From contig DAISZK010000001.1 of the NCBI GenBank assembly GCA_036824855.1, forward strand, positions 345-64,344: a DNA stretch of 64,000 nucleotides, given 5' to 3'. Under the pieces are notes generated by a model, which had not been told where the DNA came from, searched no databases, and was given only the letters and a program-made list of their open reading frames with translations. Shown here one piece after another: positions 3,074 through 64,000 of the stretch. The number at the start of each line of letters is the position of its first letter. Position 1 is the first letter of the stretch. Both the position numbers and the translations under genes were made by a program. This stretch comes from Chthoniobacterales bacterium. Lineage in GTDB: Bacteria; Verrucomicrobiota; Verrucomicrobiia; Chthoniobacterales; UBA6821.

Positions 3074-3182
3074 AAACGGAGGAAAGACTCACAGGGATGA
3101 GGGAAATGCAGGGGATATCCTCAAATCACGATCGCTCCACTCCAACCCCTCCCTTGCATCCCCTTGATCTTTGGCAATTCTC

Positions 3183-4061: not shown

Positions 4062-4070
4062 GGCGATTTC

Positions 4071-5075: not shown

Positions 5076-5115
5076 AATGAAGGGACGTCGAAGGAACAGA
5101 GGAACGGTATCGTTT

Positions 5116-36095: not shown

Positions 36096-36136
36096 GACCT
36101 GAACAAGCTAACCCGGGATCAACGTGACAGGAATCG

Positions 36137-36154
36137 ACATTCTGATCAGAATGT
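36137..36154. promoter_or_regulatory. 18-bp perfect palindrome ACATTCTGATCAGAATGT in the divergent AKR/AraC intergenic region (candidate operator)
   Basis: I read it directly and verified it base by base as its own reverse complement. It lies 42 nt from the AKR ATG (36095) and 53 nt from the AraC ATG (36207). GTGAC motifs flank it at 36124 and about 36163. Confidence 0.5.
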
Positions 36155-36206
36155 TGTGAAAAGTGACCAATTCGTAATTCCGACGCAGATTGAGCCCCGA
36201 CCACTC

Positions 36207-37136
36207 ATGACCCAAAAGTCAACGGCCCTGCGAGCGCCAAACCGGTTCAGCCCAATCTCGCGATACTTTCCGATCGGGGCAGAACATCGTCTTCTGGGAC
36301 TTCACGTCTTCAATGTCGGGACCTCCAGTGTTGATCCAGGGCATCCCTACCCACTCGTCCGTAATCCCGCAGGCAAAATGATCGACTGGAGCAAGGGACG
36401 GATGCTCCCGTTTCCAAAATTGCTTTTCGTCACCCGCGGCTCGGGAAGCGTGGAAACAAGAGATGCGCAACACCCGGTCACAGCCGGAGACCTCCTGCTC
36501 CTTCTTCCGGGAACATGGTATCATTACCATCCCGACCCTACCACCGGCTGGGATGAGACATGGTTCAAGTTCGATGGCTCTCTTACCCGGAAACTGCTAA
36601 ACCGTCAGGAATTGGCCTCTTCAGGACCTATTCTGCACGTTGGCCGTGATCGAGAGATAATAAGCCTCTTCGACGAGATGGTGCTCTTGGCACGAGAGGA
36701 ACCAGCCGGGTTCGAACTCCTGCTGGCTTCCAAGGCGATCGAAGTATTAACCCGAGTGCTAATCGGCAACCATCGCAGAAAAGTCGGCGAGGACCATTTT
36801 GAGGCCATCCTCCGCGAGGCCAAGGAGCGCCTTTTAGAAGACGGCGGACGGATCCCTCTGCAGGACCTTGCTCGGGAACTTGGCATGAGTTACTCCACCT
36901 TCCGCAGGGCATTCAAGGACCGGACTCGGATCTCACCCCACCAATTCCAACTGCAAAGCCGCATCCACCAGTCCTGCGTTCTGCTGACCGAGACCCGGCT
37001 CCCGGTCAAGGAGATCGCGGACCGGCAAGGCTTCGAGAGTGTCTCCTACTTCTCACAGATCTTCAAACGCAAGACCGGATGGTCCCCCCAAGACTACCGC
37101 AAAAACTTCTCGAGCGCCCTCCTTCCGGGCGCCTGA
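36207..37136 (+). CDS. AraC/XylS family transcriptional regulator (cupin-like sensor + HTH)
   Basis: The start is trimmed to ATG 36207 because the track start at 36015 overlaps the AKR gene. The C-terminal HTH_18-type region is LARELGMSYSTFRRAFKDRTRISPHQFQLQSRIHQSCVLLTETRLPVKEIADRQGFESVSYFSQIFKRKTGWSPQDYR. Confidence 0.88.
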   Translation: MTQKSTALRAPNRFSPISRYFPIGAEHRLLGLHVFNVGTSSVDPGHPYPLVRNPAGKMIDWSKGRMLPFPKLLFVTRGSGSVETRDAQHPVTAGDLLLLLPGTWYHYHPDPTTGWDETWFKFDGSLTRKLLNRQELASSGPILHVGRDREIISLFDEMVLLAREEPAGFELLLASKAIEVLTRVLIGNHRRKVGEDHFEAILREAKERLLEDGGRIPLQDLARELGMSYSTFRRAFKDRTRISPHQFQLQSRIHQSCVLLTETRLPVKEIADRQGFESVSYFSQIFKRKTGWSPQDYRKNFSSALLPGA

Positions 37137-44439: not shown

Positions 44440-44449
44440 TATTGGATTC

Positions 44450-48753: not shown

Positions 48754-51126
48754 TTATGGAAGTTGCCCCAGCATCTCTTGGAAATTTGTCCAACCCTGCA
48801 GATGATCCTCCTTGTCCGGTGACACGACCAGAACAGCGAGTTCTTGGGGCTTCAGATTGAGCGAAGAAGGAATAGGGGATACAAGGCCGGTCGCGGAATC
48901 GTGTAGAGAGGAGTTTGACACGGCAACTAATTGGCATGAGAGATCAGTTTCACCGGGATTGAAAAGCAGGCGAAACTTCTTTGCCGCGATAACCGCATCA
49001 AACCCGAGAATTCCCTTGGGCTCTTCAATGCATACCGCCGAGACCGTTGTCGTCACCCACGAAGGATGGATTTCAACCAGAAACCACTGGGTGAAGGAGG
49101 ATGGGTAGGCAGACGGAGTGGAGTTTCCTGCAGCACCCTTTTCATCAAGAATGCGGATTTCGGTATTCGGGAATTTCGGAAGCCGATAGGGAACTTCCGG
49201 CGTCTCGATTTTAACGCCGTTGTGCCCCAGGAAATTGACGATCAGATCGCCATATTTCCATGAATTCGTCCCGGTTTGCTCAATCTTGGTCGGCTTTCCA
49301 TTGACGGTTCCACCTGTTCCAAGCCGGAGGACCCCCTCAACGTCGATCGCCTTGGCACCCTCCTTTAAGGGAGCGATTTCGACCAGGCCGACGATCCGAT
49401 CGGGCAACCCGAGCCAGAGTTGGCGACCATTCCAGTCAACGGGATTACCCGTTGTGGAACTCCTATATTGCTGGAGTTGATAGGATCCGCCAACCGCGCT
49501 GAATGATTTTCCCATGACCACCGCCGATTTCAATCCGCAGGTCCGCCACGAATAGGCCAGGCGATTAAATTTCCCATCTTTGGAAATGGGATCCTTACCC
49601 TCCTGAATTCTTGGATAGACTCCCATCAGGATGTTTCCCTGGTCACCATTCGCCTCGGTCACTTGGGCCCCCATGATCGTGGCCAAGCCCGGTTCGTTTT
49701 CCGGAATGGATCGTGTTGTGGCGGCATAGTTGAAGCGCCCATACCAGGCTCGCGGTCCGGCAATGTTCCGATCGATCACTGTGTAGTTGTCCGGAAGAGG
49801 CAGCTGCTTGACCTGATCATTCCACCAAGACAATCCCAGCCGGTTGGCAGGCCATCCCTTCAGATCTTTCTGACGGGCAAGCAGTTGATCATTCATGCCG
49901 CGAAGGTAAGGATTCCCGGTGAGAGCAGCCACGGACTCGCCTCCGGTCCAGCTGGAGTAAACATCGTTCCAAGTGTCCTTCCAGGAGGGAACGGTCCAGA
50001 ACTCCCCGCGCTTTCCACAGGTGACCGGCCCGTACCATTCCGTCTTTTTCAAGAGCTCCAGGACCTTGGGATCCTGGTTCACCTCGTAAATACGGGCCAG
50101 ATCCCGAGTGTCGGAATTGTGGTAATTGGCCGACTCATTCTGATGCCCCAGATAGGCCAGTGCTCCGTCGGGCCAGATGATTTTGTCCTGCGCCTCGTAG
50201 AGGAAGCGGGACTTGTCGAGATACTCCTTATTGTCCAGGTAGAGACCGAAATTCAGCATCTCAAACGCCAGCGCGAGATCGATATTCGCATAGGTGCCTT
50301 GGCGATCCTTGGCCTTGAGCCACATCACGGCTCCACCGGTCTTCATGGCCCTCTCCCAGAGAGCTTTTTGGGAGGGAAGGAGGAGTCCTGGATAGAGTTG
50401 GGCAAATTCCCGTAATGCGCACGATGCTGGTGCGATCGCGAAGTCGTCAAAAATCCCATTACCCGCAAGCGGAGCATTTTCACTACTTTTTTGACCGACT
50501 GGAACAGCTAGTGAGAGCGATCCATGGACGTCGATGGCATCGGCATAAGCGGTAGCCAAGCGTAGATAGCGCTCCAACACCTTGGGATCACCCTTCATGG
50601 GGCTCGAAGGATTGGCATAAAGCCAGAGCCAGGCCTGCATTTCTTCACCAGCAGAACGACTTCCAGCTTCCCCCGTAAAGCCACCGCTGAAGGTGTTGAC
50701 CGTTGCCGTGTTTTTGGGAAGGGGATTATCCGGCTTGGAGAGGTCATCCTTGGCACCGGCGACCAACTTGGCGAGGTAAGGATTTCCCTGCACTTTCATC
50801 GGTGGTCGAAGCGCACTGATCGTGTTGGTTTGACTGCTAGGAACAACGAGTGATTCGGGATTCTTGGCCAGCATCGCCTCCACATCATTGATCAAGTCAC
50901 CGGCATCCTTGGAGCATCCGGCATCCAGGGATGCCTTGGCCTGCTCTAAGGCTACCGTCAGGACCGCCTTGACTGCGCCAGCAGAACCCTCACCCGAAAG
51001 AGTCGCGACTTTAGGAGTTAATGAATCGATTTGGGTTGTTAGCTCTGAGTTCGCAGGAAGAGTTTCAGCACGTAAAGCAACTTCTGTAAGACCAAGAAAA
51101 ACAGCCAATATTAAGAATTTTTTCAT
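48754..51126 (-). CDS. Secreted 790-aa protein of unknown function (first gene of the island in transcription order)
   Basis: The protein has a signal peptide (MKKFLILAVFLGLTEVALRA). I recognised no family motif. The N-terminal half looks helical and the C-terminal third looks beta-rich. It has a clean ATG start and codon usage similar to its neighbours. Confidence 0.6.
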   Translation of the reverse strand: MKKFLILAVFLGLTEVALRAETLPANSELTTQIDSLTPKVATLSGEGSAGAVKAVLTVALEQAKASLDAGCSKDAGDLINDVEAMLAKNPESLVVPSSQTNTISALRPPMKVQGNPYLAKLVAGAKDDLSKPDNPLPKNTATVNTFSGGFTGEAGSRSAGEEMQAWLWLYANPSSPMKGDPKVLERYLRLATAYADAIDVHGSLSLAVPVGQKSSENAPLAGNGIFDDFAIAPASCALREFAQLYPGLLLPSQKALWERAMKTGGAVMWLKAKDRQGTYANIDLALAFEMLNFGLYLDNKEYLDKSRFLYEAQDKIIWPDGALAYLGHQNESANYHNSDTRDLARIYEVNQDPKVLELLKKTEWYGPVTCGKRGEFWTVPSWKDTWNDVYSSWTGGESVAALTGNPYLRGMNDQLLARQKDLKGWPANRLGLSWWNDQVKQLPLPDNYTVIDRNIAGPRAWYGRFNYAATTRSIPENEPGLATIMGAQVTEANGDQGNILMGVYPRIQEGKDPISKDGKFNRLAYSWRTCGLKSAVVMGKSFSAVGGSYQLQQYRSSTTGNPVDWNGRQLWLGLPDRIVGLVEIAPLKEGAKAIDVEGVLRLGTGGTVNGKPTKIEQTGTNSWKYGDLIVNFLGHNGVKIETPEVPYRLPKFPNTEIRILDEKGAAGNSTPSAYPSSFTQWFLVEIHPSWVTTTVSAVCIEEPKGILGFDAVIAAKKFRLLFNPGETDLSCQLVAVSNSSLHDSATGLVSPIPSSLNLKPQELAVLVVSPDKEDHLQGWTNFQEMLGQLP

Positions 51127-51235: not shown

Positions 51236-52246
51236 TCAGCCCAAAAAGATTCTAGCCGTCACCAGATAACAGGTAACAGTGAAGAGGTCGGCGGCAGCTA
51301 GGGTTATGGGACCTGCAGCGATCTTTGGATCCCACCGGACTATTCGGAGCAGCACGGGAACAAGCACGCCAAGCAGACCCGATACAAGAATAGAAAGAAC
51401 GATGCTCCCACCGATCGAGATAGCTGCCACGGAATCGTGCCAGCAAGATCCCACCATCCCTGCAACGGCGACCCCGGCAAGGAGCCCGAGCAGGATGGCC
51501 GTGACTCCCTCGCGGTGGAGTTTCGCCCTGAGCCATTTCCAACGCACCCGGGCGTGAGGAAGCGATTGGACCGTCAGAGCCAGCGACTGCGCAGCAACAG
51601 CCTCACCAAGCCCCAAGACCAGAGCCATGAAGACAGCCAGCACCACCCGTTGCTGTAGGGTCGAGGCAAAAGCCCCGGCCAAAAATGCGCAGAGTACTCC
51701 TCCGGAAACAGTAGCCGCCAACCATGGAAAGCGAATTCTGAAGGCCTTCCAGGGAGAAGCATGGAGCACTTCCTGCACATGGATACCGATTGACTGAAAG
51801 AGCTGGTCGTTATTGGTTCCCGTGCTGAGTTCCATCACTTCGTCGGTAAAGAGCCCAACATCAATGATACCGCAGAGTCTCTTGTTCCCATCCACGACGG
51901 GGATTGCTAGAAACTTGTGCAGGATGAAGCACTCGCATGCCTCCATCAGGGTTGCATGATCGGGAAGCGAGAGCACTCGCTTCATCATCACCTCCGAAAT
52001 CAAGCTTCCCAGCGGCTCGGTCAGAAGCTTGCGGGCGGGCACCACGCCGGAGAGTCGTCCCTCCGCATCGACGACATAAAAGTAAAAAATCCGCTCCGCC
52101 AAACCCGTTGCACGGATCGCATCGAGGGCCTCAGCCACACTCTGATCGACCCTTAGGGGGGGTGGACCAGGCGTGATAAAGTCGGAAAGCGGGCGCCCCA
52201 GATGTTCGGCAGGAGCTTTCCCTGCAGACGATAATGCGGAGGGCAT
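51236..52246 (-). CDS. MgtE-like divalent cation transporter (CBS pair + MgtE membrane domain; no MgtE_N domain seen)
   Basis: The start is trimmed to ATG 52246 because the track start at 52357 overlaps the clpC 3' end. A CBS-like region is present (VMMKRVLSLPDHATLMEACECFILHKFLAIPVVDGNKRLCGIIDV). Five hydrophobic helices with MgtE-like spacing follow. Confidence 0.7.
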   Translation of the reverse strand: MPSALSSAGKAPAEHLGRPLSDFITPGPPPLRVDQSVAEALDAIRATGLAERIFYFYVVDAEGRLSGVVPARKLLTEPLGSLISEVMMKRVLSLPDHATLMEACECFILHKFLAIPVVDGNKRLCGIIDVGLFTDEVMELSTGTNNDQLFQSIGIHVQEVLHASPWKAFRIRFPWLAATVSGGVLCAFLAGAFASTLQQRVVLAVFMALVLGLGEAVAAQSLALTVQSLPHARVRWKWLRAKLHREGVTAILLGLLAGVAVAGMVGSCWHDSVAAISIGGSIVLSILVSGLLGVLVPVLLRIVRWDPKIAAGPITLAAADLFTVTCYLVTARIFLG

Positions 52247-52283
52247 AGCCCGAAAGTTCGCTGGGTTCTCGCGGAGAGAGATC

Positions 52284-54818
52284 CTATCCCTTGGCCTTCC
52301 GGGACTTGGCGGGGGCCGGGGGCGTTCCTCCGGAAGGAGCTGAAACCTTGAAGACAAGCTTCTCTCCCTCGCGGGTTACCTGTACCTGATCACCGGCCTT
52401 GAAGGTGCCGCGGAGTATCTCCTCAGCCATCGGATCCTCGAGATAGCGCTCCACGGCACGACGCATCGGGCGGGCTCCGTAGGTGGGATCGTATCCTTTC
52501 TCAATAAGAAACTCATGCGAGGCGGCATCAAGGGTCAGGATGATTTCCTTGTCCTTGATACGAGAAGCCACCTTAGCCACCTCAAGATCGACGATGCGGG
52601 TGAGCATCTCCTTGGAGAGCGTGTGGAAGACAATGATGTCGTCAAGGCGGTTGAGAAACTCCGGTTTGAAGACTTTTTTTGTCTCTTCCAGAATCTTGCC
52701 CTGCATCGTATCGTAGCCCTCATCGTGCTTGGGAGCTCCGAAGCCTAGCGTTGTCTGCTTCTTGATCAGCTCGGCGCCGACATTCGATGTCAGGATGATG
52801 ATGGTGTTACGGAAGTCGATCTTGCGCCCGAGGCTGTCGGTGACAGTGCCCTCCTCCAGAATCTGGAGCAGAAGGTGCATGACGTCGGGGTGTGCCTTTT
52901 CGACCTCATCAAAAAGGACAACCGAATAGGGACGGCGGCGCACTGCCTCGGAGAGTTGTCCCCCCTCTTCGTGACCGACATAGCCCGGAGGTGATCCGAT
53001 GAGTCGCGATGAAGTGAACTTCTCCATGTACTCGGACATGTCGATCTGGATGAGAGCATCGGGATCGCCGAACATGAATTCCGCAAGGGAGCGGGCCAGG
53101 AAGGTCTTACCGACACCCGTGGGACCCAAAAAGATGAAGGATCCGATGGGACGACGAGGATCCTTGAGATCCGCACGTGAGCGGCGGAGCGCCTTGCTGA
53201 TCGCGGTGACAGCCTCGTCCTGACCGATGACGCGCTGCTTGAGATCATCCTCCATGGCAAGGAGCTTTGCAGTCTCCTTCTGCTCCATGCGGTTCAGCGG
53301 CACGCCGGTCCACTTGGAGAGAACATGCATGATCTCCTCCTCACCGACGATGACCTCGCGTTCGTCACGCTCCTTGCGCCATGAGGCTAGGGCGGTCTCC
53401 AGATCTTCCTTGGCTTTTTTCTCGGTATCGCGGAGTGATGCGGCTTTCTCGAAATCCTGAGCTTTAATGGCGGCCTCCTTTTCCCCGCGGATCCTGTCGA
53501 TATCGGCCTCGAGATCCTTGGTGGAAGGAGGGCGGGTCATCGCGCCGATCCGCGCCCGTGAACCGGCCTCATCCATGAGATCAATAGCCTTGTCGGGAAG
53601 GAATCGTCCGGTCAGATAGCGATCGGAAAGTTTTGCAGCTGCCTCGAGCGCAGCATCGGTGATGACAGCCTTGTGGTGAGCCTCGTACTTGGGACGGAGT
53701 CCCTTGAGGATCAGGACCGTATCCTCCACGGACGGGGCCTCGACTTTGACGGACTGAAAGCGGCGCTCGAGAGCGGAGTCCTTCTCGATGTATTTGCGAT
53801 ACTCGTTCAGCGTTGTCGCCCCGATGCACTGAAGTTCGCCACGACTGAGTGCGGGCTTGATGATGTTAGATGCATCCATGGCTCCTTCGGCGGAGCCGGC
53901 TCCGACGATCGTGTGCATCTCGTCGATGAAGAGGATGATGTTCTTGTTCTTGCGAATCTCGTCCATCACCGCCTTGATCCGTTCCTCGAACTGCCCGCGG
54001 TATTTCGTGCCGGCCACCATGAGCGCCAGATCGAGTGTGATGACACGCTTGCCCGAGAGAAGCTCCGGCACATTGCCCGCGACGATCTCCTGGGCAAGCC
54101 CCTCGGCGATGGCGGTCTTGCCGACACCGGCCTCGCCGATCAAGACGGGGTTATTCTTGCTGCGGCGGCAGAGAATCTGGATGACGCGCTCAATCTCCTC
54201 GGCCCGGCCGATCACTGGATCAAGTTCTCCCTTGGCAGCGATTTCAGTCAGGTCGCGCCCAAAGGCTTTCAATGCCGGGGTCTTGCCTTCCTTGCGGCCA
54301 GGGCCACCACCTGCAGTGGCTTCCTCACCCTCGTGTCCTTCGGGAATCTCTCCACCCTCCTCGTCATCAGCAGGGTTGAAATTCGGATCAAGTTCCTTGA
54401 GCACTTCATTGCGCGTGCGATCGAGATCGACTTCCAGATTTTTGAGGACCTGGGCCGCAACTCCTTCTCCTTCTCGGAGCAGACCAAGGAGGATATGCTC
54501 GGTGCCAACATAGGAATGCTGGAGGGCTTTTGCCTCCTTGCCGGCCAAGGCCAGAACCTTCTTCACGCGCGGCGTATAGGGAATATTGCCGGCCATTTTG
54601 TTCTCCTGACCCGAGCCAACCTGCTTCTCGACCTCCTGCCGCACGGTCTCGAGATCGAGACCCATCTTCTGGAGCACATTCACAGCCACTCCCTGACCGA
54701 GCTTGATAAGGCCGAGCAACAGATGCTCGGTCCCGACGTAATTGTGGTTGAAGCGGTCGGCCTCCTTGCGTGAAAGGGCCAAGACCTGCTGGGCTCGCGG
54801 CGTGAAATTGTTCATCAT
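52284..54818 (-). CDS. clpC: ATP-dependent Clp protease ATP-binding subunit ClpC
   Basis: Two Clp_N repeats are present ([16 protein letters not shown]...GTEHLLLGL). Walker A motifs are [13 protein letters not shown] and [19 protein letters not shown]-like linker is present ([19 protein letters not shown]). Confidence 0.93.
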
Positions 54819-55954
54819 GATTCCTCGCTGGTTTCGGAAGTGCTGCTCGTGCTTGTGGTGGGGGAACCATTTGTCGGGATTTTCCCGATCTCCGGTTCCG
54901 GCATCTGTTTTAACTTCGTACGAATCAGGGCCGCGCGCAAGGAATCGCGTTCTTCAGCCCCGAGTTTTGCCACTTGCAACCCTTTTTGAAGATGGGCCGG
55001 CTGGGTCTCGATAAAAAGTTCGTCCACATGGAGTCGGTTCTTGGAGGGGAAGAGCCCAAGATCAACACCCATCTTGATGAAGGAGAGGAGATTCAAAGCC
55101 TCCTTTGAGGTGATCGAATGGGCATGGCAGAGAATGCCGTAAGCCCTGCCGATCTGGTCGAGCAGGGTTTCGGCGCGCTGCTGGAGGAGAATCTGTCGGG
55201 CATTCTGCTCATGTTCGAGGATCTGGAAGATGACCTTGTTTAGACGCCCAATGATCTCCTCCTCGGTCTCACCGAGGGTCGTCTGGTTGGAGACCTGAAA
55301 GAGGTTTCCCATCGCCTCGGTCCCCTCCCCATGCAACCCGCGCACAGCAAGGCCGATCTTATTGACCGAATTGATGATCTTGTTCACCTGTTCCGACATG
55401 ACGAGTCCAGGGAGATGCATCATGGCGCTCGCCCTCATGCCGGTGCCGACATTCGTCGGGCAGGCAGTCAAATAACCAAGGTCATTGTGAAAGGCAAAGT
55501 CGAGGGCATCCTCCAACTCAGAGTCCGTCTGATTGATCATCGCATAGACCTCATCAAGCTGGAGACCGGCGCGGATCGCCTGCATCCGGAGATGGTCCTC
55601 CTCATTGATCATAAAGCTCAGTGTCTGGGATGTGTTCATGACGACGGCACTTCCCGCACCCTTGGCAGCATGCTCGCGACTGATGAGATGACGCTCAACC
55701 AGGACTTGCTTCTCGAGCGCCGAGAGATCCTCCAGCCTCTCGGAAAAGGATTCCTCCATCTCGGGAAGCTGCTCCACCGCTGCCCGAACCTCCTCAAGCA
55801 CGGCGACACGCTCTACTTTCTTAGCCCACCCCGGGAAGGGTTTGCCCTTCAGATTGCGGGCTAGTCGAACCCTGCTACTCACCACAATCTGGTCATGAGG
55901 GCCCGCACCGCTAAGCCACTCTCCGGTATTCGCAATGATTCGGGAGAGTTTCAC
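54815..55954 (-). CDS. mcsB: Protein arginine kinase (ATP:guanido phosphotransferase)
   Basis: The phosphagen-kinase signature is LTACPTNVGTGMRASAMMHLPGL. At 379 aa it is the right size. The GTG start overlaps the mcsA stop (GTGA), and its own stop overlaps the clpC ATG. Confidence 0.88.
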   Translation of the reverse strand: MKLSRIIANTGEWLSGAGPHDQIVVSSRVRLARNLKGKPFPGWAKKVERVAVLEEVRAAVEQLPEMEESFSERLEDLSALEKQVLVERHLISREHAAKGAGSAVVMNTSQTLSFMINEEDHLRMQAIRAGLQLDEVYAMINQTDSELEDALDFAFHNDLGYLTACPTNVGTGMRASAMMHLPGLVMSEQVNKIINSVNKIGLAVRGLHGEGTEAMGNLFQVSNQTTLGETEEEIIGRLNKVIFQILEHEQNARQILLQQRAETLLDQIGRAYGILCHAHSITSKEALNLLSFIKMGVDLGLFPSKNRLHVDELFIETQPAHLQKGLQVAKLGAEERDSLRAALIRTKLKQMPEPEIGKIPTNGSPTTSTSSTSETSEES

Positions 55955-56559
55955 GGCTGCTTGCGGGGTTTCGGCACAACAAAATCCTGAGATACTTCTG
56001 TGGCCACGGGAGCGGCAATGCGATTCACTGCGGAGGTACGTTCCTTCATTGCAATGAGCTCGACCTCCGCGGCTCGAACCTCCTCCTCCAACGTGCGAAT
56101 TTTATCCCGGATGGAGGCCGCTTCTTCAAAGTGCTCTTCCTCCACGGCTTTTTGAAGGCTCGCCTGCAACTCGACCAACTCCTTGTTACGAAGACGTCCG
56201 GCACGAAGTTTGGCAGGAACCTTTCCAGTATGGACGCTGCCCCGGTGCATATTCTTGAGCATTCCCGAGAGCCCCTCGGCAAAGGCATCGTAGCACGCAC
56301 TACATCCGAGGCGGCCCGTCTTTTTGAAATCGGCCTGCGAGAATCCGCAAACGGGACAGCGATTGCCCGCCGGGTTCTTGTCGATCTCCTGGGCGGCCCC
56401 TAATCCTAGCAAGAGATCGGCCAAGGCGAACCCCGTAGGGTCATTGACCCCTTTCTCCTTCGAGCAGGATTCGCAGAGATTCACCTTCTGCATCTTCCCA
56501 TCGACGATCTGAGTCAGGAAGACCGTGGCCTCCTTGGATTTACAGACGTCACAGAACAT
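55951..56559 (-). CDS. mcsA: McsA-like activator of protein arginine kinase (zinc fingers + UVR motif)
   Basis: Cysteine motifs are CDVC...CESC and CPVC...CSAC. The UVR-type helix is LQKAVEEEHFEEAASIRDKIRTLE. Its position immediately upstream of mcsB supports the call. Confidence 0.82.
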   Translation of the reverse strand: MFCDVCKSKEATVFLTQIVDGKMQKVNLCESCSKEKGVNDPTGFALADLLLGLGAAQEIDKNPAGNRCPVCGFSQADFKKTGRLGCSACYDAFAEGLSGMLKNMHRGSVHTGKVPAKLRAGRLRNKELVELQASLQKAVEEEHFEEAASIRDKIRTLEEEVRAAEVELIAMKERTSAVNRIAAPVATEVSQDFVVPKPRKQP

Positions 56560-56580
56560 GGATTGGGCCGGATTGATTCC

Positions 56581-57450
56581 TTAATAGATCGGCGTGCCTT
56601 CGGTCTGTGTCAACTCGTGGAATCGAGCAATCAACCGACGCGTCACAGGACCAGGCTTGCCGTCCCCAATCGGACGTTTGTCGAGCTCCACAGCCGGAAT
56701 GATCTCGGCGGCGGTGCCGGTCAGGAAGCACTCGTCAGCCGTGTAGATATCGTAGCGGGTCATCTGCGGCTCGGAGACTTGCAGACCTAACTCCTCAGCG
56801 ATCTGGATTGCAACGGCACGGGTGACACCCGCAAGCGCTCCCGAAGAGATCGGTGGCGTGGTGATCAATCCATCCGAAACAATGAAGATATTGTCCCCAG
56901 TGCATTCGGCCACAAGCCCCTGCTCATTGAGCATCAATCCCTCGCCGGCTCCGGCATGGGTCGCCTCGATCTTGGCCATGATGTTGTTCAGATAGTTGAG
57001 AGACTTCACCATCGGGCTGAGTGCTCCATGGGCGATGCGGCGCGTCGAGCAGGTGACGACCTTGAGACCCTTCTCGTAGCTCTCGGCTGGGTAAAGGGTA
57101 ATTTTGGCGGCAATGATGATGACCGTCGGCTTAGGGCAATGCTCCGGACTCAAACCTAGATTCCCTTTTCCTCTAGTCACCACAAGGCGGATATAACCAT
57201 CCTTGAGATCATTGCGGCGGATCGTCTCAAGCAGCGCCTCTGTCATGGCAGCACGGTCAAGCGGAATCACCATGAAGATCGCAGCAGCCGACTTGTAGAG
57301 ACGCTCAATATGCTCTTGCAAACGGAAGACCTTCCCATTGTAGAAACGGATGCCCTCGAAGACACCATCCCCATAAAGTAGTCCATGATCAAAAACCGAG
57401 ACCTTAGCCTCGGACTCAGGATAAAAAGCGCCGTCGATATAGATCTGCAT
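56581..57450 (-). CDS. ilvE: Branched-chain amino acid aminotransferase (class IV)
   Basis: Motifs are FDHGLLYGDGVFEGIRFYNGKVFRLQEHIERL and YIRLVVTRGKG, and the VKSLNYLNNI block is present. The start is set at ATG 57450 (the track start is TTG at 57480). Confidence 0.85.
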   Translation of the reverse strand: MQIYIDGAFYPESEAKVSVFDHGLLYGDGVFEGIRFYNGKVFRLQEHIERLYKSAAAIFMVIPLDRAAMTEALLETIRRNDLKDGYIRLVVTRGKGNLGLSPEHCPKPTVIIIAAKITLYPAESYEKGLKVVTCSTRRIAHGALSPMVKSLNYLNNIMAKIEATHAGAGEGLMLNEQGLVAECTGDNIFIVSDGLITTPPISSGALAGVTRAVAIQIAEELGLQVSEPQMTRYDIYTADECFLTGTAAEIIPAVELDKRPIGDGKPGPVTRRLIARFHELTQTEGTPIY

Positions 57451-57480: not shown

Positions 57481-58335
57481 TCAGAAAAGAAAAAGGTCCC
57501 TGAACCTGATCAACGTCATCCTTTGTTTGTAAAGACGGTAGACTTCCTTGGCGTTAGGCCAGCTTTCGCAGGACCCCCCTTCTGGTTGACTTACCCCAGA
57601 ACTGCGATCCAGTAGGAAGTGTTTGTTCAAAGTGAGCAGCTCTGCGCCCATTTCCATCAGCCTGCGACTAGTCGTAAAAACGCTCCACTCAGGGTCCCTA
57701 GTCGTTGTCTTTTGGGAAAGAATTCTCCCTCCATCGATTTTTTCTGAGACACGGTGCAGGGTTACCCCGATATCTTTTTCTTCCAAGATCAAAGACTGCA
57801 ATACCGGCTCAACTCCTCGATGCATTGGCAGCAGAGAGGGGTGTAGATTGACTACCGCAAACCCTTCACCATCACAGAGATCCTTGTCCAATCTCTGATC
57901 GAAATGAGACGCAACTAACAATTGAGGATTGCTTGTTGCCAGGAACCGATGCCCTTCGGGAGAGTTTAGATCCCGCGTCCGTAAAACCGGAAAACCAATG
58001 CGACGAGCCATGGCACCAACAGACAGCTTCTCGCGTCCAAGCATGGAACCAACCACCTCCATTGCGGTGGTGATAAACCAGATGTAGACCGTGTACAGAA
58101 TTCCGCAGCGATAAAAAAAACATGCCGCCCCGGTCAAAAAACCCATCTCGGGACGAAACACCCGAACTGATCTCACGAGCCCCACCACCTCGAAACTCTC
58201 GTCACGAAGAAGCGCGCCGAGAACGATAGCACCCAACGCTCCGCCACTCGTGCAGAAAACAGTCCGGATTTTACTATCCGGATTTCTTGCGTGCAAATCA
58301 GGACTGAGATCAGCCCTCAGTGGTGACACTGCCAT
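57481..58335 (-). CDS. Formyltransferase-fold protein (Formyl_trans_N only) with a hydrophobic insertion
   Basis: The catalytic blocks FAVVNLHPSLLPMHRG (Asn/His) and KIDGGRIL (Asp) align to Fmt/PurN-type enzymes. There is no Fmt C-terminal domain. An aromatic/hydrophobic segment of about 40 aa (GFLTGAACFFYRCGILYTVYIWFITTAMEVVG) sits where Fmt has a polar loop. Confidence 0.7.
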   Translation of the reverse strand: MAVSPLRADLSPDLHARNPDSKIRTVFCTSGGALGAIVLGALLRDESFEVVGLVRSVRVFRPEMGFLTGAACFFYRCGILYTVYIWFITTAMEVVGSMLGREKLSVGAMARRIGFPVLRTRDLNSPEGHRFLATSNPQLLVASHFDQRLDKDLCDGEGFAVVNLHPSLLPMHRGVEPVLQSLILEEKDIGVTLHRVSEKIDGGRILSQKTTTRDPEWSVFTTSRRLMEMGAELLTLNKHFLLDRSSGVSQPEGGSCESWPNAKEVYRLYKQRMTLIRFRDLFLF

Positions 58336-58347
58336 CTCTTCTACCTC

Positions 58348-59706
58348 CTAGCCCTTTCTCCAAAGATGGCTCAGCACCTTGATAGTCTGGTCGATATCCT
58401 GTTCGGAATGATCCGAGCTTATGAAAAAACGAAGTCTGGCAGCATTCTCAGAGACCGCTGGATAAAGGATAGGCTGGGCACTGATTCCCTCCGAGGCGAG
58501 TTCTTGCGAGAGACGGGCAGCCCTGATCGAACTTGCCGTAATGGCAGGGATCACCGACATCCCGGAGCTTGATCCCGTAGGAATCCCTGCGGACCGGGCA
58601 CCCTGGAGGAATTGCCTGCCACGCTGCCTGAGGATTGCAATCCGTTTGGGTTCCCTGAGCATGATCTGGAGCGCCGTCAGGGCTGCGGCACAGGAGGCAG
58701 GAGGAATACCGACGCTGTAGATAAAGCCGGGAACCGAATATTTGAGGTATTCGATCAAGGAGGATGCCCCTGCAACATACCCGCCGCAGGATGCCAGGGA
58801 CTTGCTAAGGGTCCCCATCCAGAGATCCACATCCTTGGGATCCATTCCGAAATGCTCTGCAATCCCGCGACCAGCAGCTCCCATGACCCCTATGGAGTGC
58901 GCTTCATCCACCATCAGCAGTGCATGATGCTTCCGCTTGATTGCGACGATCTCCGGAAGATCGGGAAAATCACCATCCATGCTGTAGATTCCCTCGACGA
59001 CGACCAACACCCGCTCATACTGTCGCCTCGACTCGGCCAGGATCTTGTCCAGGGCTTGATGATCATTGTGAGGGAATGAAATCCGTTTGGCTCCGGAGAG
59101 CCGGATGCCCTCGATGACACAATTATGAATCAGGGCGTCATGAACGACGAGATCCTTGGGGCCTAACAAATGACCGATCACCGTGACCGAGGTGGCGTGA
59201 CCGCTGACAAAACTGAGTGCCGCTTCGGAACCATGCAACTCTGCAAGGGCTCTCTCCAAGTCCTGATGCAGGGGTCGCTCTCCGGCAACGATACGACTAG
59301 CGGAGACAGACGTGCCGTATTTCTCGATGGCTTCTTTGGCAGCTTGATTCACCTCAGGGTGTCCACTGAGTCCGAGATAATTGTAATTCGAGAAATTAAT
59401 CAGCTCACGGCCTGCGACCATGGTGGTGGCTCCTGCCGTGCCCTCATGACAGGTGAAGAAAGGGTTTTTGATTCCGATTTTTTTTGCCCCCTGTAGCAAC
59501 AGTGCCAATTTCTTGAAACCGGGGGTCTTGTCCCATCCACTATGCTCGGCAAAGGATCCAGCCTCCCTTTTCAAAAAAGGGATCGCTGAGGATAGCCCGG
59601 ACTCCGGATTCTCAAGACGCTTGAGACGATTTTCGATGGCTTGATGCACCAGACGTTCCTTCATCTGTGAGGCAAGGCTTTTGGAACCAGGGAATGGAGA
59701 ACTCAT
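58348..59706 (-). CDS. Alpha-oxoamine synthase family PLP enzyme (AONS/serine palmitoyltransferase/CqsA-like)
   Basis: Motifs are NFSNYNYLGL, EGIYSMDGDFPDL and LMVDEAHSIGVMG. The PLP-lysine block is MGTLSKSLASCGGYVAG. It carries an N-terminal extension of about 90 aa compared with the typical size of BioF. Confidence 0.85.
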   Translation of the reverse strand: MSSPFPGSKSLASQMKERLVHQAIENRLKRLENPESGLSSAIPFLKREAGSFAEHSGWDKTPGFKKLALLLQGAKKIGIKNPFFTCHEGTAGATTMVAGRELINFSNYNYLGLSGHPEVNQAAKEAIEKYGTSVSASRIVAGERPLHQDLERALAELHGSEAALSFVSGHATSVTVIGHLLGPKDLVVHDALIHNCVIEGIRLSGAKRISFPHNDHQALDKILAESRRQYERVLVVVEGIYSMDGDFPDLPEIVAIKRKHHALLMVDEAHSIGVMGAAGRGIAEHFGMDPKDVDLWMGTLSKSLASCGGYVAGASSLIEYLKYSVPGFIYSVGIPPASCAAALTALQIMLREPKRIAILRQRGRQFLQGARSAGIPTGSSSGMSVIPAITASSIRAARLSQELASEGISAQPILYPAVSENAARLRFFISSDHSEQDIDQTIKVLSHLWRKG

Positions 59707-59767
59707 GGTTAGAATGATGAAAGGATCATGCCGCTAGTCGATAGCTTGGAATTTCATTAGCTCCTCC

Positions 59768-62700
59768 CTAGGCACTGGCTCTGGAAACGGATGAAGCAAT
59801 CTCCGTGAGATCCTCCTCGGACAACTCTTCAGCACCATGCTGAGCAGCTAGGAGACGCATGCTCTCCTGCAGCACATCACTTTCAGATTCCTTGGGATGC
59901 TCTTCTTGCGATTCATTCAGAATCATCCCGGAAATCCTCTCGGCAAGCTTCTGAACTGTCGGCCCTTCGCTCAAGACCATCATCGGGAGCTTGATCTCCA
60001 GACTCTCCTCGAGAGTTGCAGCCAACTCCACGGCCATCAGGGAATCCATCCCGACATCGAAAAGCGACTTACGTCGATCCAGCTTCATCGGATCCATACG
60101 GAGGATACCGGCTATCGAATGGGCCAGATGCTCCTGAAGCAATCCGACAGTCTCTTCTTGGTTCAATCCCGCAAATTGTTCGCGGATGGATCGTGTTTCC
60201 CCGCTCTGTGCTGATTGCTCATCTGATTCATGACGGAAACAGTCAAACCGAGGCGCCTTTGCCGAAGGGAGGAATTTGGCCATTTTACCCCACTCCAAAT
60301 CGAGCCATGCCGTCGTGACCACACCTTGGCTGATAAGGGATCCCAAGGTTTCAAGAGCTTCATCCGAATCCAAGGCACGCCCTCCCATTCTCGAGCAGAG
60401 CGCATCCTTGATTTGCTGATTACGGGCAAGATACCCGACATCTGCGATTGGCCCCCATGCCACGCAGGTTGCGGGGAGACCCTTTGATGCCCTAACAGCA
60501 GCCAACGCTTCAAGCCCCAAGTTAGCTGCTACATACGCCCCCTGTCCGGGGTTTCCAAAAACGGTGGTGGCCGAGGAGTAGAGGACAAAAAATTCCAGTC
60601 TGTCCGTTCGGGTAAGCTCATCAAGGAGCATGGCTCCGACTAACTTCGAATGGAGCACCTTTTCCAACTGCGATGCCGAGAGATTCTGCAGAAGACCATC
60701 CTCGATCACCATTGCAGAATGAATGACACCACGCAGAGGGGGCATCGTGGAGCGAATCTGTTCGAGCAAAAGGGTCACGGACTCACGGCAACCGACGTCA
60801 CAGGAAACGATCTTCACATCGACCCCAGACGCAGTGATTTTTGCGACAATCTCCCTTCCTTCGTTATCAAGCACTCCCCGTCTGCTTGCTAGCACCAGTG
60901 ATCGCGCTCCCCTACCAGCCAGCCATTCTGCTGAGCGAAGGCCAAAACCACTCGTTCCCCCCGTCACCAGATAGGTGGCGTCATCGCGTAGTGAAAATTG
61001 TTCAGAGATGTCATCAGAAACCACCTCGGCCGCGGAATGCCCCGGTGAAGTGACAATAACTTTACCCACCTGCTTGGAGTGCTGCATGTGCCGGAACGCC
61101 TCGGCGATTTCCGAGGAGTCGAACACGGTGTAGGGAAGTGGATGCAAGACTCCCTTCTCGAAAAGCGAGGTGATCTTGGCAAAAAGTTCTGCGGTAAGAC
61201 TCGGGTTGGCCGCCATGAGTTGGTCGGCATCAATGCCATGGTAGGTGATATTATTGCGGAAGGGACGCAGGCCGATACGGCTATTCTCGTAGAAGTCTCT
61301 TTTGCCGAGTTCTAAAAATCGCCCGAAGGGTCTGAGGATCCTGAGATTTTTGACAACGGCCTCGCCGGCGAGCGAATTCAGCACGATATCGATTCCCTCT
61401 CCGGAGGTGAGCGCCATCACCTCATCTGCAAAACGAAGCGATCGGGAATCGAGGATATGATCTACTCCGAGCATCTTCAGAAAATCACGTTTTTCTTCCG
61501 ACCCCGCCGTGGCGAAAATCTCAAGCCCGAGATGACGAGCCAATTGGATGGCAGCAATTCCGACACCTCCAGCGGCCCCATGGATGAGCAATCTTTCACC
61601 AGAACGGGCACGGGCCAGCTCAATGAGTGAATAATAGACCGTAAAAAACGCCGTGGGGATCGTGGCTGCGGCTTCAAACGTCCAATCCGCCGGCTTTTTC
61701 ATCACGGCCTCGACCTTGGTGACAGCGTGGGTGGAAAAAGCTTTCGATGCAAAAGCGATCACCTCGTCCCCAGGCTGGCACCCGGAAACTCCCGCGCCTG
61801 TTCGTGTCACGACACCCGACAATTCCATTCCGACCGTCTGCCCTGCAAACCCACTCTCCAATGCCTCGTCGGGAAGCAACCCCATCGCGTACATCACATC
61901 CCTAAAGTTTAATCCAGCAGCCTTGACCTCAATTTCCAACTCTCCCTGATTCGGAGCAACTCTCGATCCCGAGTACCATTTTAGGTTCGTGAAGGAGCCC
62001 GGTTGACTGAAGTCCAGATAGCGCAGCCCACTTTCCTCTGATGCAGGGATGATCGATGATTGGACTGCTGTTCTGGAAACTTTTCGCCCAAATACTCCCA
62101 ACAGAACCTCGTCCTCACAGGAATCTGACATCACCTCCGCCGCAAGTGCCCGCGAGACCTCGCTGAATGAGGCAAGCCGCACATCCAGGAGGCGGAGATT
62201 CCCCATGGCATACTCATTTCTAGCCACCCTTAGATAACCTAAAAGAGCGGAACCTTGGATCGTTATCCCAGAGTTTTCTTTTTTACTTGCCTTGTTGGCC
62301 TCATGGAAAAGACCTGAAGAAATAATCGTTACGGGGATCGGCGAGGCAGAACCCTCGTTTGCTTTCAGCACCGCATTGATAGCGCCCAAGCGTTCTTTGA
62401 GAGTCGTGAGTATCGTCTCTGCAGACTCCTCGTCATGCTGGGTTCCCGTGATAATAATCAATCCACCATTCGTCCCCTCATGTGAATTAAGCAACCCGCC
62501 CCACCCCTCCTCATCGGAGAGAGAAGAGATGGTGGCAACCTGGTTTAAGACCTCGAGATGATCTTGAATCGAAAGGGCAAGGGATGCGTCCTGCTCATTG
62601 TGAAAGAGAATTATCCAAGTCTTGGGCTCTGGAACCGAGATTGATTGCTCCTCGGCTTGACCAGTGGATGCAAGGATTAGGAAACCAGAGCTCACCCCCT

Positions 62701-64000
62701 CCTCTGAGGGCGGCGTCCAAACATCCTTAAAACCCGCTTCCTTTAGACTCCTCTGCCAGACATCAGGATTTTTGCGACGCGACATCAACTCCCCAGCCTC
62801 AGTCGTCCACCAATCGCATGAGGATCCGTAAAGGAAATCATCTAGCCGGTTTGAAGCCCTCTCCGCGAAGGCAAGAGTGCCTTCCGGAAGCAGGAGTTTG
62901 TTCAATTCCTCAAGCTTCTCTAGGGAGGACATGGAGTCCATCCCTGTAGCAACCACGATGAAATCGAAGCCACCGGCAAGGCAAGCCGTCGCAGGAAGAG
63001 GAGTCACGTTATCCAGCACATGGACGGCTACTTCAGGATATCCGGCGAGTCTTGGTAAGAGATCCCTGCGTGCCTGAGAAGTCGGAACCGTCAAGGTCAC
63101 CTCGCAGTTTCCAGACAGCATCCAGGGAGCAAGAATGGTTTCCCCATGGATCCTATTACCAAGCATGCATAGGATTTTGGGACGATCGCCTTTTTGTGAT
63201 AAGGAAAGCGATTTCTCAAGAACATGCGAGATCAGGTCATAAAGTGGCGCAAGGGATCCGGGCACCATCAGAGGCGACTCCTCTGACCAAGATCGGGGTA
63301 AGAGTTGAGTCGCATCGCGCTGACCGGAGAGGATTGCAGGGAGATGGAGGCCGATCCTTCCCGTTGCTCTGATCAGATCGGAATACTCGGGATGAGACTC
63401 TATGAGCGTGAGCCAGATAGCCTGCGCCGAAGGCTCTTCGGGACGCTTTATTAAAGAACAGCGTCCGTCATCACGCCTTCTGAGGAGCCCGTCTTTCTCT
63501 AATATCCAAAACAGACTAAGTGCATAGGATTGAAGCGATTCCAATACAGCACCCTGTTCCACGAGACGATCCAGTGTGAAATCACTCTCCCCGTCAGTAA
63601 GTGCCTGGAGAGTTTCTTTCGTAAACGCACTGCATAGAAGCTCCAACAGCAGCTCCGTCTCCTCATGATAAACTTTCCATTGTTTCGAAGATTTTAACTT
63701 GGGCAGCGCCTCTTCAAATAGTCGGCGCACATTCAGCAAACTTAGCGACTTGCTTGCCTGATTCGGTGACAAGGGTTTGGAAATGAACTTCGTAGTCAGG
63801 AAGCGTGCATGATCCCCGGCACGAGCAATGAGTTTGGCTGCCTTGAACCTAACCCCGGATGCAGAGGCGACCAGATCACCCGCCTCGTTTCTCAGGCAAA
63901 GATCTGCCAAGATCCCACGCCGGGTACGGCGTCTCACGATCGCCTCAAGTGAGGCACAGGCTTCATGAGGGCGATGCATCCGAAATCGGTCCAATCGAAT
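59768..64000 (-). CDS. Type I reducing polyketide/fatty-acid-like synthase, C-terminal part (DH end, degenerate MT-like region, ER, KR, ACP); 5' end lies beyond the right edge
   Basis: The ER is at about 61049..62032 (GELEIEVKAAGLNFRD, LLIHGAAGGVGIAAIQLA). The KR is at about 60425..60982 (TYLVTGGTSGFGL, YSSATTVFGNPGQGAYVAAN). The ACP is at about 59945..60172 (LFDVGMDSLMAVEL). There is no TE or R domain, and an acidic tail of about 55 aa follows the ACP. The reading frame stays open to nt 64000, so the M at 63994 in the track is not a real start. Confidence 0.88.
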   Translation of the reverse strand: MRLDRFRMHRPHEACASLEAIVRRRTRRGILADLCLRNEAGDLVASASGVRFKAAKLIARAGDHARFLTTKFISKPLSPNQASKSLSLLNVRRLFEEALPKLKSSKQWKVYHEETELLLELLCSAFTKETLQALTDGESDFTLDRLVEQGAVLESLQSYALSLFWILEKDGLLRRRDDGRCSLIKRPEEPSAQAIWLTLIESHPEYSDLIRATGRIGLHLPAILSGQRDATQLLPRSWSEESPLMVPGSLAPLYDLISHVLEKSLSLSQKGDRPKILCMLGNRIHGETILAPWMLSGNCEVTLTVPTSQARRDLLPRLAGYPEVAVHVLDNVTPLPATACLAGGFDFIVVATGMDSMSSLEKLEELNKLLLPEGTLAFAERASNRLDDFLYGSSCDWWTTEAGELMSRRKNPDVWQRSLKEAGFKDVWTPPSEEGVSSGFLILASTGQAEEQSISVPEPKTWIILFHNEQDASLALSIQDHLEVLNQVATISSLSDEEGWGGLLNSHEGTNGGLIIITGTQHDEESAETILTTLKERLGAINAVLKANEGSASPIPVTIISSGLFHEANKASKKENSGITIQGSALLGYLRVARNEYAMGNLRLLDVRLASFSEVSRALAAEVMSDSCEDEVLLGVFGRKVSRTAVQSSIIPASEESGLRYLDFSQPGSFTNLKWYSGSRVAPNQGELEIEVKAAGLNFRDVMYAMGLLPDEALESGFAGQTVGMELSGVVTRTGAGVSGCQPGDEVIAFASKAFSTHAVTKVEAVMKKPADWTFEAAATIPTAFFTVYYSLIELARARSGERLLIHGAAGGVGIAAIQLARHLGLEIFATAGSEEKRDFLKMLGVDHILDSRSLRFADEVMALTSGEGIDIVLNSLAGEAVVKNLRILRPFGRFLELGKRDFYENSRIGLRPFRNNITYHGIDADQLMAANPSLTAELFAKITSLFEKGVLHPLPYTVFDSSEIAEAFRHMQHSKQVGKVIVTSPGHSAAEVVSDDISEQFSLRDDATYLVTGGTSGFGLRSAEWLAGRGARSLVLASRRGVLDNEGREIVAKITASGVDVKIVSCDVGCRESVTLLLEQIRSTMPPLRGVIHSAMVIEDGLLQNLSASQLEKVLHSKLVGAMLLDELTRTDRLEFFVLYSSATTVFGNPGQGAYVAANLGLEALAAVRASKGLPATCVAWGPIADVGYLARNQQIKDALCSRMGGRALDSDEALETLGSLISQGVVTTAWLDLEWGKMAKFLPSAKAPRFDCFRHESDEQSAQSGETRSIREQFAGLNQEETVGLLQEHLAHSIAGILRMDPMKLDRRKSLFDVGMDSLMAVELAATLEESLEIKLPMMVLSEGPTVQKLAERISGMILNESQEEHPKESESDVLQESMRLLAAQHGAEELSEEDLTEIASSVSRASA

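Follow-up and report, generated by a model that had tools for sequence, protein, structure and literature searches.

The 64,000-nucleotide stretch of contig DAISZK010000001.1 analysed here (the window) ends in three minus-strand genes (57481-64000) encoding the C-terminal part of a type I polyketide synthase (PKS) of the iterative kind, a stand-alone alpha-oxoamine synthase (AONS) and a protein of the formyltransferase fold (FT). A sequence-only reading had predicted an amino-lipid cassette from this trio. Homologue, structure and synteny comparisons suggest, at a probability that we put at roughly 55%, that the locus is a sphingoid-base module of the SgaAB/RkpAG/WcbRT type to which one extra enzyme has been added: the PKS would supply an acyl chain, the AONS would release it as a sphingoid base, the FT would N-formylate the amine and glycosyltransferases (GTs) encoded upstream would glycosylate the product. 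The open reading frames were found where the sequence-only reading had placed them, co-directional like all genes between 47.8 and 64 kb, and their spacing is operon-like (61 nt between PKS and AONS, 12 nt between AONS and FT). Scans for promoters and terminators returned sites no more often than by chance.

The AONS (58348..59706, minus strand, 452 aa; Pfam Aminotran_1_2, 9.6e-47) was compared with PfSgaB, the sequence of which was taken from Supplementary Fig. S6 of Peters et al. (PMC12134224). In Pseudomonas fluorescens MYb115 the type I PKS SgaA and the AONS SgaB make C24-C28 sphinganines and phosphoglycerol sphingolipids, and purified PfSgaB is a serine palmitoyltransferase (SPT) that is almost exclusively serine-specific (Peters et al., Nat Commun 2025, PMC12134224). 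The two proteins align over their full length and are 54% identical and 75% similar over 445 aligned residues (479 bits). The pyridoxal phosphate (PLP) motifs, read as intact from the sequence, are present as YSMDGD (residues 241-246), VDEAHSIG (266-273) and GTLSKSLASCGGY, the last holding the PLP lysine K302 (58801-58803) within GTLSKS, and all three align with PfSgaB. In phmmer comparisons at one database size throughout, the AONS scored 477-582 bits against other proteobacterial PKS-linked AONS enzymes, 510 bits against PfSgaB, 495 bits against the Caballeronia AONS of a wcb-type locus and 434 bits against Sinorhizobium meliloti RkpG (47% identity). Against solved enzymes the maximum for any SPT, Kbl, BioF or ALAS was 224 bits, reached with the best SPTs, followed by 196 bits for Escherichia coli Kbl and 173 bits for E. 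coli BioF. The protein also fell below the curated cut-off of every NCBIfam equivalog (BioF, Kbl, three Spt, ALAS and CqsA-type), including the canonical Spt models NF047599, NF047600 and NF047603 (309 vs 640, 280 vs 500 and 218 vs 670, respectively). On account of the high scores within the group and the sub-threshold scores outside it, the AONS is assigned by sequence to the PKS-linked SgaB/RkpG/WcbT clade and is neither BioF nor a canonical Spt, a placement made from pairwise and profile scores. It is thus predicted to act like an SPT yet to belong to a separate, PKS-linked clade, and its amino-acid substrate is, by analogy with PfSgaB, most likely L-serine. In the protein collection searched, the AONS matched at least 7862 clusters at E<=1e-100.

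The sequence-only reading had proposed that a stand-alone AONS off-loads the PKS to give a sphingoid-like 2-amino-3-keto lipid, and since the AONS resembles PfSgaB, the proven SPT of a PKS-dependent sphinganine pathway, this logic is supported. None of the three sequence-level objections that it had named against itself holds: ketosynthase and acyltransferase domains are encoded upstream, the AONS groups apart from BioF with no biotin genes nearby, and many relatives keep the trio. Its chosen precedents, fungal Fum1/Fum8 (fumonisin) and the sphingofungin/myriocin-type pathways, hold in part: there too an AONS off-loads an iterative, highly reducing PKS and a sphinganine analogue results, but those are eukaryotic secondary-metabolite clusters with other tailoring enzymes, and a direct bacterial counterpart has already been described. 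By the scores above, obtained against PKS-linked AONS enzymes and solved SPT, Kbl, BioF and ALAS, the AONS is demonstrably nearer to bacterial SgaB than to any of these solved enzymes.

Within the window the PKS (59768..>64000, minus strand) is represented by 1410 codons of a 2530-aa protein of the SgaA/RkpA/WcbR-type and runs off the window end. This fragment comprises a linker outside Pfam families followed by an enoylreductase domain (ER; 61049..61948, residues 685-984 of the fragment; ADH_N, ADH_zinc_N and ADH_zinc_N_2 matches), a ketoreductase domain (KR; 60443..60979, residues 1008-1186; PF08659, 1e-57) and, as the last domain, an acyl carrier protein (ACP; 59933..60127, residues 1292-1356; PF00550 PP-binding, 8.8e-14) with its phosphopantetheine-attachment serine in GMDSLM (60041-60043). 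The full protein was read from a JGI metagenome contig (L001, 37.7 kb; 3300006107, Ga0007836_1000032) that was retrieved by an exact look-up of the AONS protein and is identical to the window across the 6600 nt compared (0 mismatches). On this contig the complete PKS (2347-9939) has the Pfam order KS-AT-DH-linker-ER-KR-ACP, so the ketosynthase (KS, 5-377), acyltransferase (AT, 533-850) and dehydratase (DH, 898-1174) domains that the sequence-only reading expected past nt 64000 do lie beyond the window end. As had also been noted from the sequence, no thioesterase (TE) or reductase (R) release domain follows the ACP, by Pfam in either the fragment or the full protein. In the DH-ER stretch of about 600 aa Pfam found no match, and the methyltransferase family PF08242 that had been suggested was not detected. 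The catalytic motifs are intact by sequence reading (KS Cys/His/His, AT GHSVG and YAFHS, DH HxxxGxxxxP, ER GGVG, KR Tyr and ACP DSL). Among solved structures the iterative mycocerosic acid synthase is nearest (974 bits). The protein shares 43% identity with the Sedimenticola PKS along its full length, and 36-41% with S. meliloti RkpA. The protein is accordingly a single-module type I KS-AT-DH-ER-KR-ACP synthase without TE or R domain, the architecture that marks the SgaAB, RkpA-RkpG and WcbR-WcbT pairs.

The third gene (57481..58335, minus strand) encodes the 284-aa FT, which matches Pfam Formyl_trans_N (PF00551, 6.8e-17). Its catalytic Asn/His/Asp set, rightly described as intact from the sequence, consists of N163 (57847-57849), H165 (57841-57843) and D201 (57733-57735); these residues and the HPSLLP folate loop are invariant in the 26 members of a family alignment (A1), and in a second alignment (A2) the triad is invariant as well, together with P166, L169 and P170. 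An AlphaFold model built on A1 (pLDDT 90.5, pTM 0.88) had as best Foldseek matches Fmt, the hydrolase domain of 10-formyl-tetrahydrofolate (10-formyl-THF) dehydrogenase (FDH), the FT domain of ArnA and WbkC, each with a probability of 1.00 (E 1e-18 to 1e-13, TM ~0.6), and a profile-to-PDB sequence search agreed with this placement. The FT thus shares its fold, triad and folate loop with Fmt, the ArnA N-terminal domain, WbkC and PurN, but it differs from them in several respects. The C-terminal domain of Fmt and ArnA, PF02911, was not detected by Pfam in the protein or its close family; the NCBIfam scores lie below cut-off for fmt (68.2 vs 201.5), ArnA (57.8 vs 777), PurN (41 vs 150) and also PurU; and the genomic partner is a lipid-forming AONS, not tRNA, purine or sugar genes. 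A further difference is a hydrophobic helical insertion of about 40 residues (62-100; 58036..58152) placed after strand 2 by the model and formed of two helices (66-77 and 79-99) rich in Tyr, Trp, Phe and Ile. Its Kyte-Doolittle hydropathy is ~1.5 over 19 residues and it is conserved in both alignments, and the FT profile matches solved formyltransferases only downstream of the insertion region, from profile position 73-88 or beyond. In the modelled structure the insertion is a candidate membrane- or lipid-binding element.

The close family of the FT comprises about 73 cluster representatives at 36-96% identity, all of 260-310 aa. When 1.84 billion representative proteins were searched with the family profile, 361 clusters (formed at 50% identity) were returned at E<=1e-30; among the best 150 listed of these, nearly all match over most of their length and a few are N-terminally truncated fragments. 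Sequence and fold comparison place the protein in the formyltransferase superfamily as a member of a distinct, uncurated family. Literature searches returned no description of this family, nor of any formyltransferase linked to a PKS/AONS pair, to capsule or to SPT. The sequence-only reading knew of no bacterial pathway with the trio; this stands for the third gene, while the PKS-AONS pair is known as SgaAB, RkpA/RkpG and WcbR/WcbT. As far as these searches show, the linkage of the FT family to an AONS and the compact GT-PKS-AONS-FT architecture without reductase, LtaS or Kps genes are undescribed. One FT-like member (P0342, 387 aa, from a 1.3-kb contig of JGI 3300075153) carries a PilZ (c-di-GMP-binding) domain fused at its N-terminus, which hints at c-di-GMP control of the kind found in exopolysaccharide systems.

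The trio is syntenic in many relatives. PKS-AONS-FT order is kept in three close relatives (L087, L088 and L089; FT identity 60-83%), which also keep ilvE-mcsA-mcsB-clpC downstream, in members at 44-47% FT identity, with ribD downstream on one and a nitroreductase gene on the other, and in a Steroidobacteraceae genome and Sedimenticola thiotaurini (L005/L006, 35-39%). On the P0038 contig, L090, L005 and L006 the order is the same and the downstream genes are unrelated. Another Steroidobacteraceae contig (L004) has the FT gene as a direct neighbour but on the opposite strand, and on L093 a distant member (E 2e-38 to the profile) is directly preceded by an AONS-type gene. In Methylobacterium bullatum and Microbulbifer sp. 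MKSA007, FT-like proteins at 23-28% identity (A2) are encoded inside Kps-type PKS-AONS loci. A scan of a genome collection with the FT alignment relied on a generic NxHPSLLP pattern, the output of which was swamped by ordinary Fmt genes, and yielded as family members only L004-L006 and, weakly, L012. In most contexts examined the FT family adjoins or shares a locus with an SgaB-type AONS, an association that survives changes of phylum and neighbourhood. Two FT-like contexts have no AONS nearby. One is that of a Reyranella (L012, FT identity 29%), with GT4 genes in the vicinity. In the other (L094, 1687-6886) the neighbours of the gene for the FT-like protein P0366 encode a class III aminotransferase fusion of 829 aa and a cytochrome-b5 fatty-acid desaturase; this is again a lipid-amine setting, and one that may represent a different route to such an amine.

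Whether ilvE belongs to the cassette had been left open by the sequence-only reading. The gene (56581..57450, minus strand) has its ATG at 57450, 30 nt past the FT stop codon, and is probably co-transcribed with the cassette. It is a true branched-chain amino-acid aminotransferase (BCAT), with NCBIfam scores above the cut-offs (458 bits vs 363), and it follows the FT gene in close relatives only, being absent from that position on the P0038 contig, L090, L005 and L006. Owing to its genuine BCAT score and its loss from the neighbourhood outside the close lineage, ilvE is regarded as a housekeeping bystander and was rejected as a cassette member.

Directly upstream of the PKS on L001, and co-directional with it, lie two GT4 genes and one GT2 gene at spacings of -4, 70 and 30 nt. 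The operon-like unit therefore starts outside the window, and the cassette probably extends past the window end into these glycosyltransferase genes. An exact-match search of metagenome contigs with the contig end returned nothing, and what lies further than 2.3 kb upstream of the PKS is described from the 83%-identical relative L087 only. There, genes for a GT of 647 aa, an ABC ATPase and an ABC-2 permease are present together with manC, and the ABC-2 transporter is some 5-10 kb upstream of the PKS. In this relative the ABC-2 permease and ABC ATPase genes flank (2245-6448) two PIN/antitoxin pairs, a Polbeta-type nucleotidyltransferase gene and a PDDEXK_3 gene, which look like inserted mobile or toxin-antitoxin modules.

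Taken together, the following pathway is proposed. The reducing single-module PKS would work iteratively on malonyl units to give a long saturated acyl chain, which would stay on its own ACP because the protein has no release domain. In the next step the AONS would off-load this chain by condensing it with an amino acid, likeliest L-serine, in a decarboxylative Claisen reaction that gives a very-long-chain base of the 3-ketosphinganine type. With N10-formyl-tetrahydrofolate the FT would then formylate the C2 amine at the membrane to give an N-formyl long-chain base, a minimal "ceramide-like" lipid, and the GT4/GT4/GT2 set would glycosylate the lipid to a surface glycolipid or glycan anchor. 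Sphingoid-base formation and serine use are inferred by analogy with the characterised homologue PfSgaAB. Lipid N-formylation and glycosylation are suggested by genomic context only, the former being the most plausible role for the FT. By our reasoning, N-acylation would also stabilise the alpha-aminoketone with no reductase at hand.

Several findings weigh against this reading. To our knowledge neither an N-formyltransferase of lipid amines nor a naturally occurring N-formyl sphingoid base has been described, and literature searches returned none. The formyltransferases of polysaccharide loci usually act on amino-sugar nucleotides, and GT genes do adjoin the trio. The amino-acid specificity of the AONS is drawn from a homologue at 54% identity only. 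Tblastn with 17 accessory proteins from proteobacterial loci was run on the 64-kb window and on 10 kb around the FT-type trios. Here four queries for the KDSR-type short-chain dehydrogenase/reductase (SDR; SgaC/RkpH/WcbP) matched only the KR domain of the PKS; a cluster-encoded 3-ketosphinganine reductase of this kind is an accessory feature, proposed yet not proven to be essential. LtaS/sulfatase-type and RkpU (Poly_export) queries had no match in the window or the FT-type trios, of which the missing LtaS counts against the proposal, as does the lack of any match to KpsS/KpsC Capsule_synth in the window, L001, L087, L089, L090 and L004-L006. KpsS/KpsC-type Capsule_synth genes are present in L084, L085, L086 and L091, and the proteobacterial Kps-type loci examined carry an SDR, KpsS/KpsC and an export protein, often KpsF/KdsA/KdsB, and in most cases an LtaS/sulfatase-family protein. 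Finally, PKS-AONS loci without an FT gene were found in S. meliloti, Bordetella, a Pseudomonas plasmid, Caballeronia and L096. As many PKS-AONS loci have no FT gene, the FT is regarded as an optional tailoring partner of the PKS-AONS module and not as a core step.

The strongest competitor, to which we assign about a third of the weight given to lipid N-formylation, keeps the sphingoid base as the product of PKS and AONS but makes the FT a sugar N-formyltransferase of the WbkC/ArnA/VioF kind that acts on an amino-sugar nucleotide for the neighbouring GTs. The structural and sequence placement of the FT leaves room for this, as its best matches include the ArnA FT domain, WbkC (a GDP-perosamine N-formyltransferase) and other sugar N-formyltransferases; the lineage of the window has GT genes, manC and an ABC-2 transporter upstream, and FT-like genes occur in capsule loci too. 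Against these stand the gene neighbourhoods themselves, since no amino-sugar genes (DegT/Per-type aminotransferase or 4,6-dehydratase) were seen near the trios and the AONS and FT genes stay together where sugar genes are lacking (L005, L090 and the P0038 contig). The hydrophobic two-helix insertion of the family also speaks for a different role, matches to solved sugar formyltransferases beginning only downstream of it.

It is unlikely that the FT is no amine N-formylase at all and instead hydrolyses 10-formyl-THF, transfers formyl to a thiol of phosphopantetheine or CoA in the manner of FDH/HypX, or serves as a non-catalytic partner or scaffold of the AONS. The high Foldseek rank of the FDH hydrolase domain points this way; FDH works with a phosphopantetheine carrier, with which the ACP-bound PKS product may be compared. 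The invariance of the full transferase triad and of the folate loop argues for catalysis, it is not obvious what a pathway with a PLP condensation as its last step would gain from thiol formylation, and we know of no precedent for such a role in PKS or sphingolipid pathways.

About equally improbable is an AONS that condenses glycine, alanine or another amino acid, which would give a 1-deoxy- or nor-sphingoid amino-ketone nearer to fumonisin/AAL-type backbones or to CqsA-type signals. In the AONS superfamily few residues change the choice of substrate, identity to the serine-specific PfSgaB is modest as stated above, and the tblastn searches of the window gave no 3-ketoreductase gene nearby. 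Serine is nevertheless favoured, as PfSgaB with its near-exclusive specificity is the closest characterised enzyme and the top solved relatives are SPTs and not Kbl, BioF or CqsA. That the AONS is an ordinary BioF beside the PKS by coincidence was effectively refuted: although TIGR00858 bioF is its top NCBIfam model by score and source pipelines label homologues "8-amino-7-oxononanoate synthase", the 357.8 bits fall short of the 426.45 cut-off, PfSgaB outscores solved BioF by 510 to 173 bits, no bio genes (bioA/B/D) occur in the 64-kb window and PKS-AONS adjacency is conserved across phyla.

With N-formylation of a PKS-made sphingoid base retained as the favoured interpretation, the locus can be set beside known systems. 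As in SgaAB, a monomodular iterative type I PKS without release domain is followed directly by a stand-alone AONS, and the chemistry expected in common is the condensation of acyl-ACP and serine to 3-ketosphinganine. The locus differs in having GT4/GT2 genes upstream and no SgaC-type ketoreductase or LtaS-family gene nearby, and in the FT-fold gene joined to the operon, the word "formyl" being absent from the main text of the SgaAB study (PMC12134224). MYb115 is moreover a Pseudomonas whereas the host here looks verrucomicrobial, to judge by the names of the GT4 homologues matched (Chthoniobacterales, Methylacidiphilales). The same study presents a census of 6101 SgaAB homologues that lists Sedimenticola, Verrucomicrobiales, Spartobacteria and the "PVC group" (PMC12134224).

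The PKS and AONS families and their order are also those of the rkp-1 K-antigen region of rhizobia such as S. meliloti and of the Burkholderia wcb capsule locus, in which the pair has been known genetically since the 1990s. The annotated rkp-1 region (rkpU, rkpA, rkpG, rkpH, rkpI, rkpJ) reads as export gene, PKS, AONS, SDR, gap, KpsS-like gene and kpsF, with no FT gene. The rkp-1 and wcb loci differ from the present one by a KpsS/KpsC-type gene, the LtaS/sulfatase-like RkpI, the SDR RkpH, Poly_export and KpsF, none of which was found in the window or the FT-type trios. WcbR and RkpA have been treated as one PKS family inside capsule clusters for surface polysaccharide of the ABC-transporter type (PMC3908369). 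The FT was considered as a candidate RkpI and rejected, as the rkpH-rkpJ gap encodes an LtaS/sulfatase-like protein and tblastn with the FT finds nothing there. The protein that is rkpI by position (L085, 14100-16100) is a 446-aa membrane protein of the LtaS/sulfatase-type. Given that MYb115 makes phosphoglycerol-sphingolipids, phosphoglycerol-sphinganine might be the acceptor for KpsS/C in the rkp/wcb capsule loci.

The FT-like proteins of Methylobacterium bullatum and Microbulbifer MKSA007 share with the FT the N-terminal insertion, a C-terminal SWP motif and the invariant triad. Their genes, however, lie 7-8 kb from the AONS gene amid SDR, KpsC/S, export and ABC-transporter genes, with an additional LtaS/sulfatase-like gene in Methylobacterium, and neither locus has the three-gene unit.

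Further enzymes are encoded in some PKS-AONS loci. On a plasmid of Pseudomonas sp. TMW 2.1634 a GNAT acyltransferase is encoded in the PKS-AONS locus (L091, 18561-19163), and on plasmid p2 of Caballeronia insecticola an LpxC-like deacetylase lies between PKS and AONS (L092, 13030-13956). Either may be an alternative enzyme for the sphingoid amine and, though the loci are few, both are suggestive of an amine that is commonly tailored. In a further variant (L096, 11356-18968; GCA_965184205.1) the AONS is followed by a 261-aa protein, a class III aminotransferase, an SDR and two GT4 genes, and the locus continues with a CDP-alcohol phosphatidyltransferase, a GT21 (ceramide-glucosyltransferase family) and Poly_export. 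The 261-aa protein was rejected as a divergent FT (hhalign probability 0.1%) and the upstream GT2 of the present cassette as an orthologue of this GT21 (BLASTP E 0.76).

Bacterial PKS-dependent sphingolipid synthesis was demonstrated only in 2025. The locus described here is a compact variant outside Proteobacteria, probably verrucomicrobial, that has an FT and GTs in place of the reductase/LtaS/Kps set. If the FT does formylate a lipid amine, both the enzyme activity and the class of bacterial lipid would be new, and the trio would be a simple three-gene system for studying the tailoring of PKS-made sphingoid bases; if it is a sugar formyltransferase, the locus is merely another member of a very large known family. 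Comparison with the rkp and wcb loci further suggests that, in rhizobia and Burkholderia, RkpI/LtaS-type enzymes and phosphoglycerol-sphingolipids may be connected with a capsule anchoring that depends on KpsS/C. A bolder proposal, which we put forward tentatively and hold to be clearly less probable than the pathway itself, is that the FT family is the first of lipid-amine N-formyltransferases, that the bacteria with the trio, Verrucomicrobia-type and some proteobacterial ones, make N-formyl very-long-chain sphingoid bases as a new lipid class (a one-carbon "ceramide"), that these prime or anchor at the membrane a glycan built by GT4/GT2 and exported by an ABC transporter and, by extension, that PKS-made sphingoid lipids and not lyso-phosphatidylglycerol anchor the capsules of the rkp/wcb-type.

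The rest of the window holds housekeeping genes and a large glycoside-hydrolase island. The island (15222-51126, minus strand) encodes GH43, two GH29 fucosidases, three Melibiase_2 proteins with He_PIG, GH28, GH2 with PA14, DUF5703 with NPCBM and SASA/GDSL esterases, and is accompanied by a divergent AraC regulator (36015-37136, plus strand). Four of its minus-strand reading frames (23674-25170, 28241-31654, 41863-44541 and 48754-51126; 498, 1137, 892 and 790 aa, respectively) had no Pfam match at E<=1e-5. A second gene of the class IV aminotransferase fold (8408-9271; 1.2e-22, a weaker match), beside a sigma-54 activator and uppS, may not be another ilvE and could instead encode an enzyme of the PabC or D-amino-acid aminotransferase type. 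Between the island and the cassette (51236-57450) lie ilvE, mcsA (UVR domain), mcsB (ATP:guanido phosphotransferase), clpC and an MgtE-like gene in an order that is kept in close relatives. The McsAB-ClpC module is associated with Gram-positive bacteria and is hence striking in this probably verrucomicrobial host.

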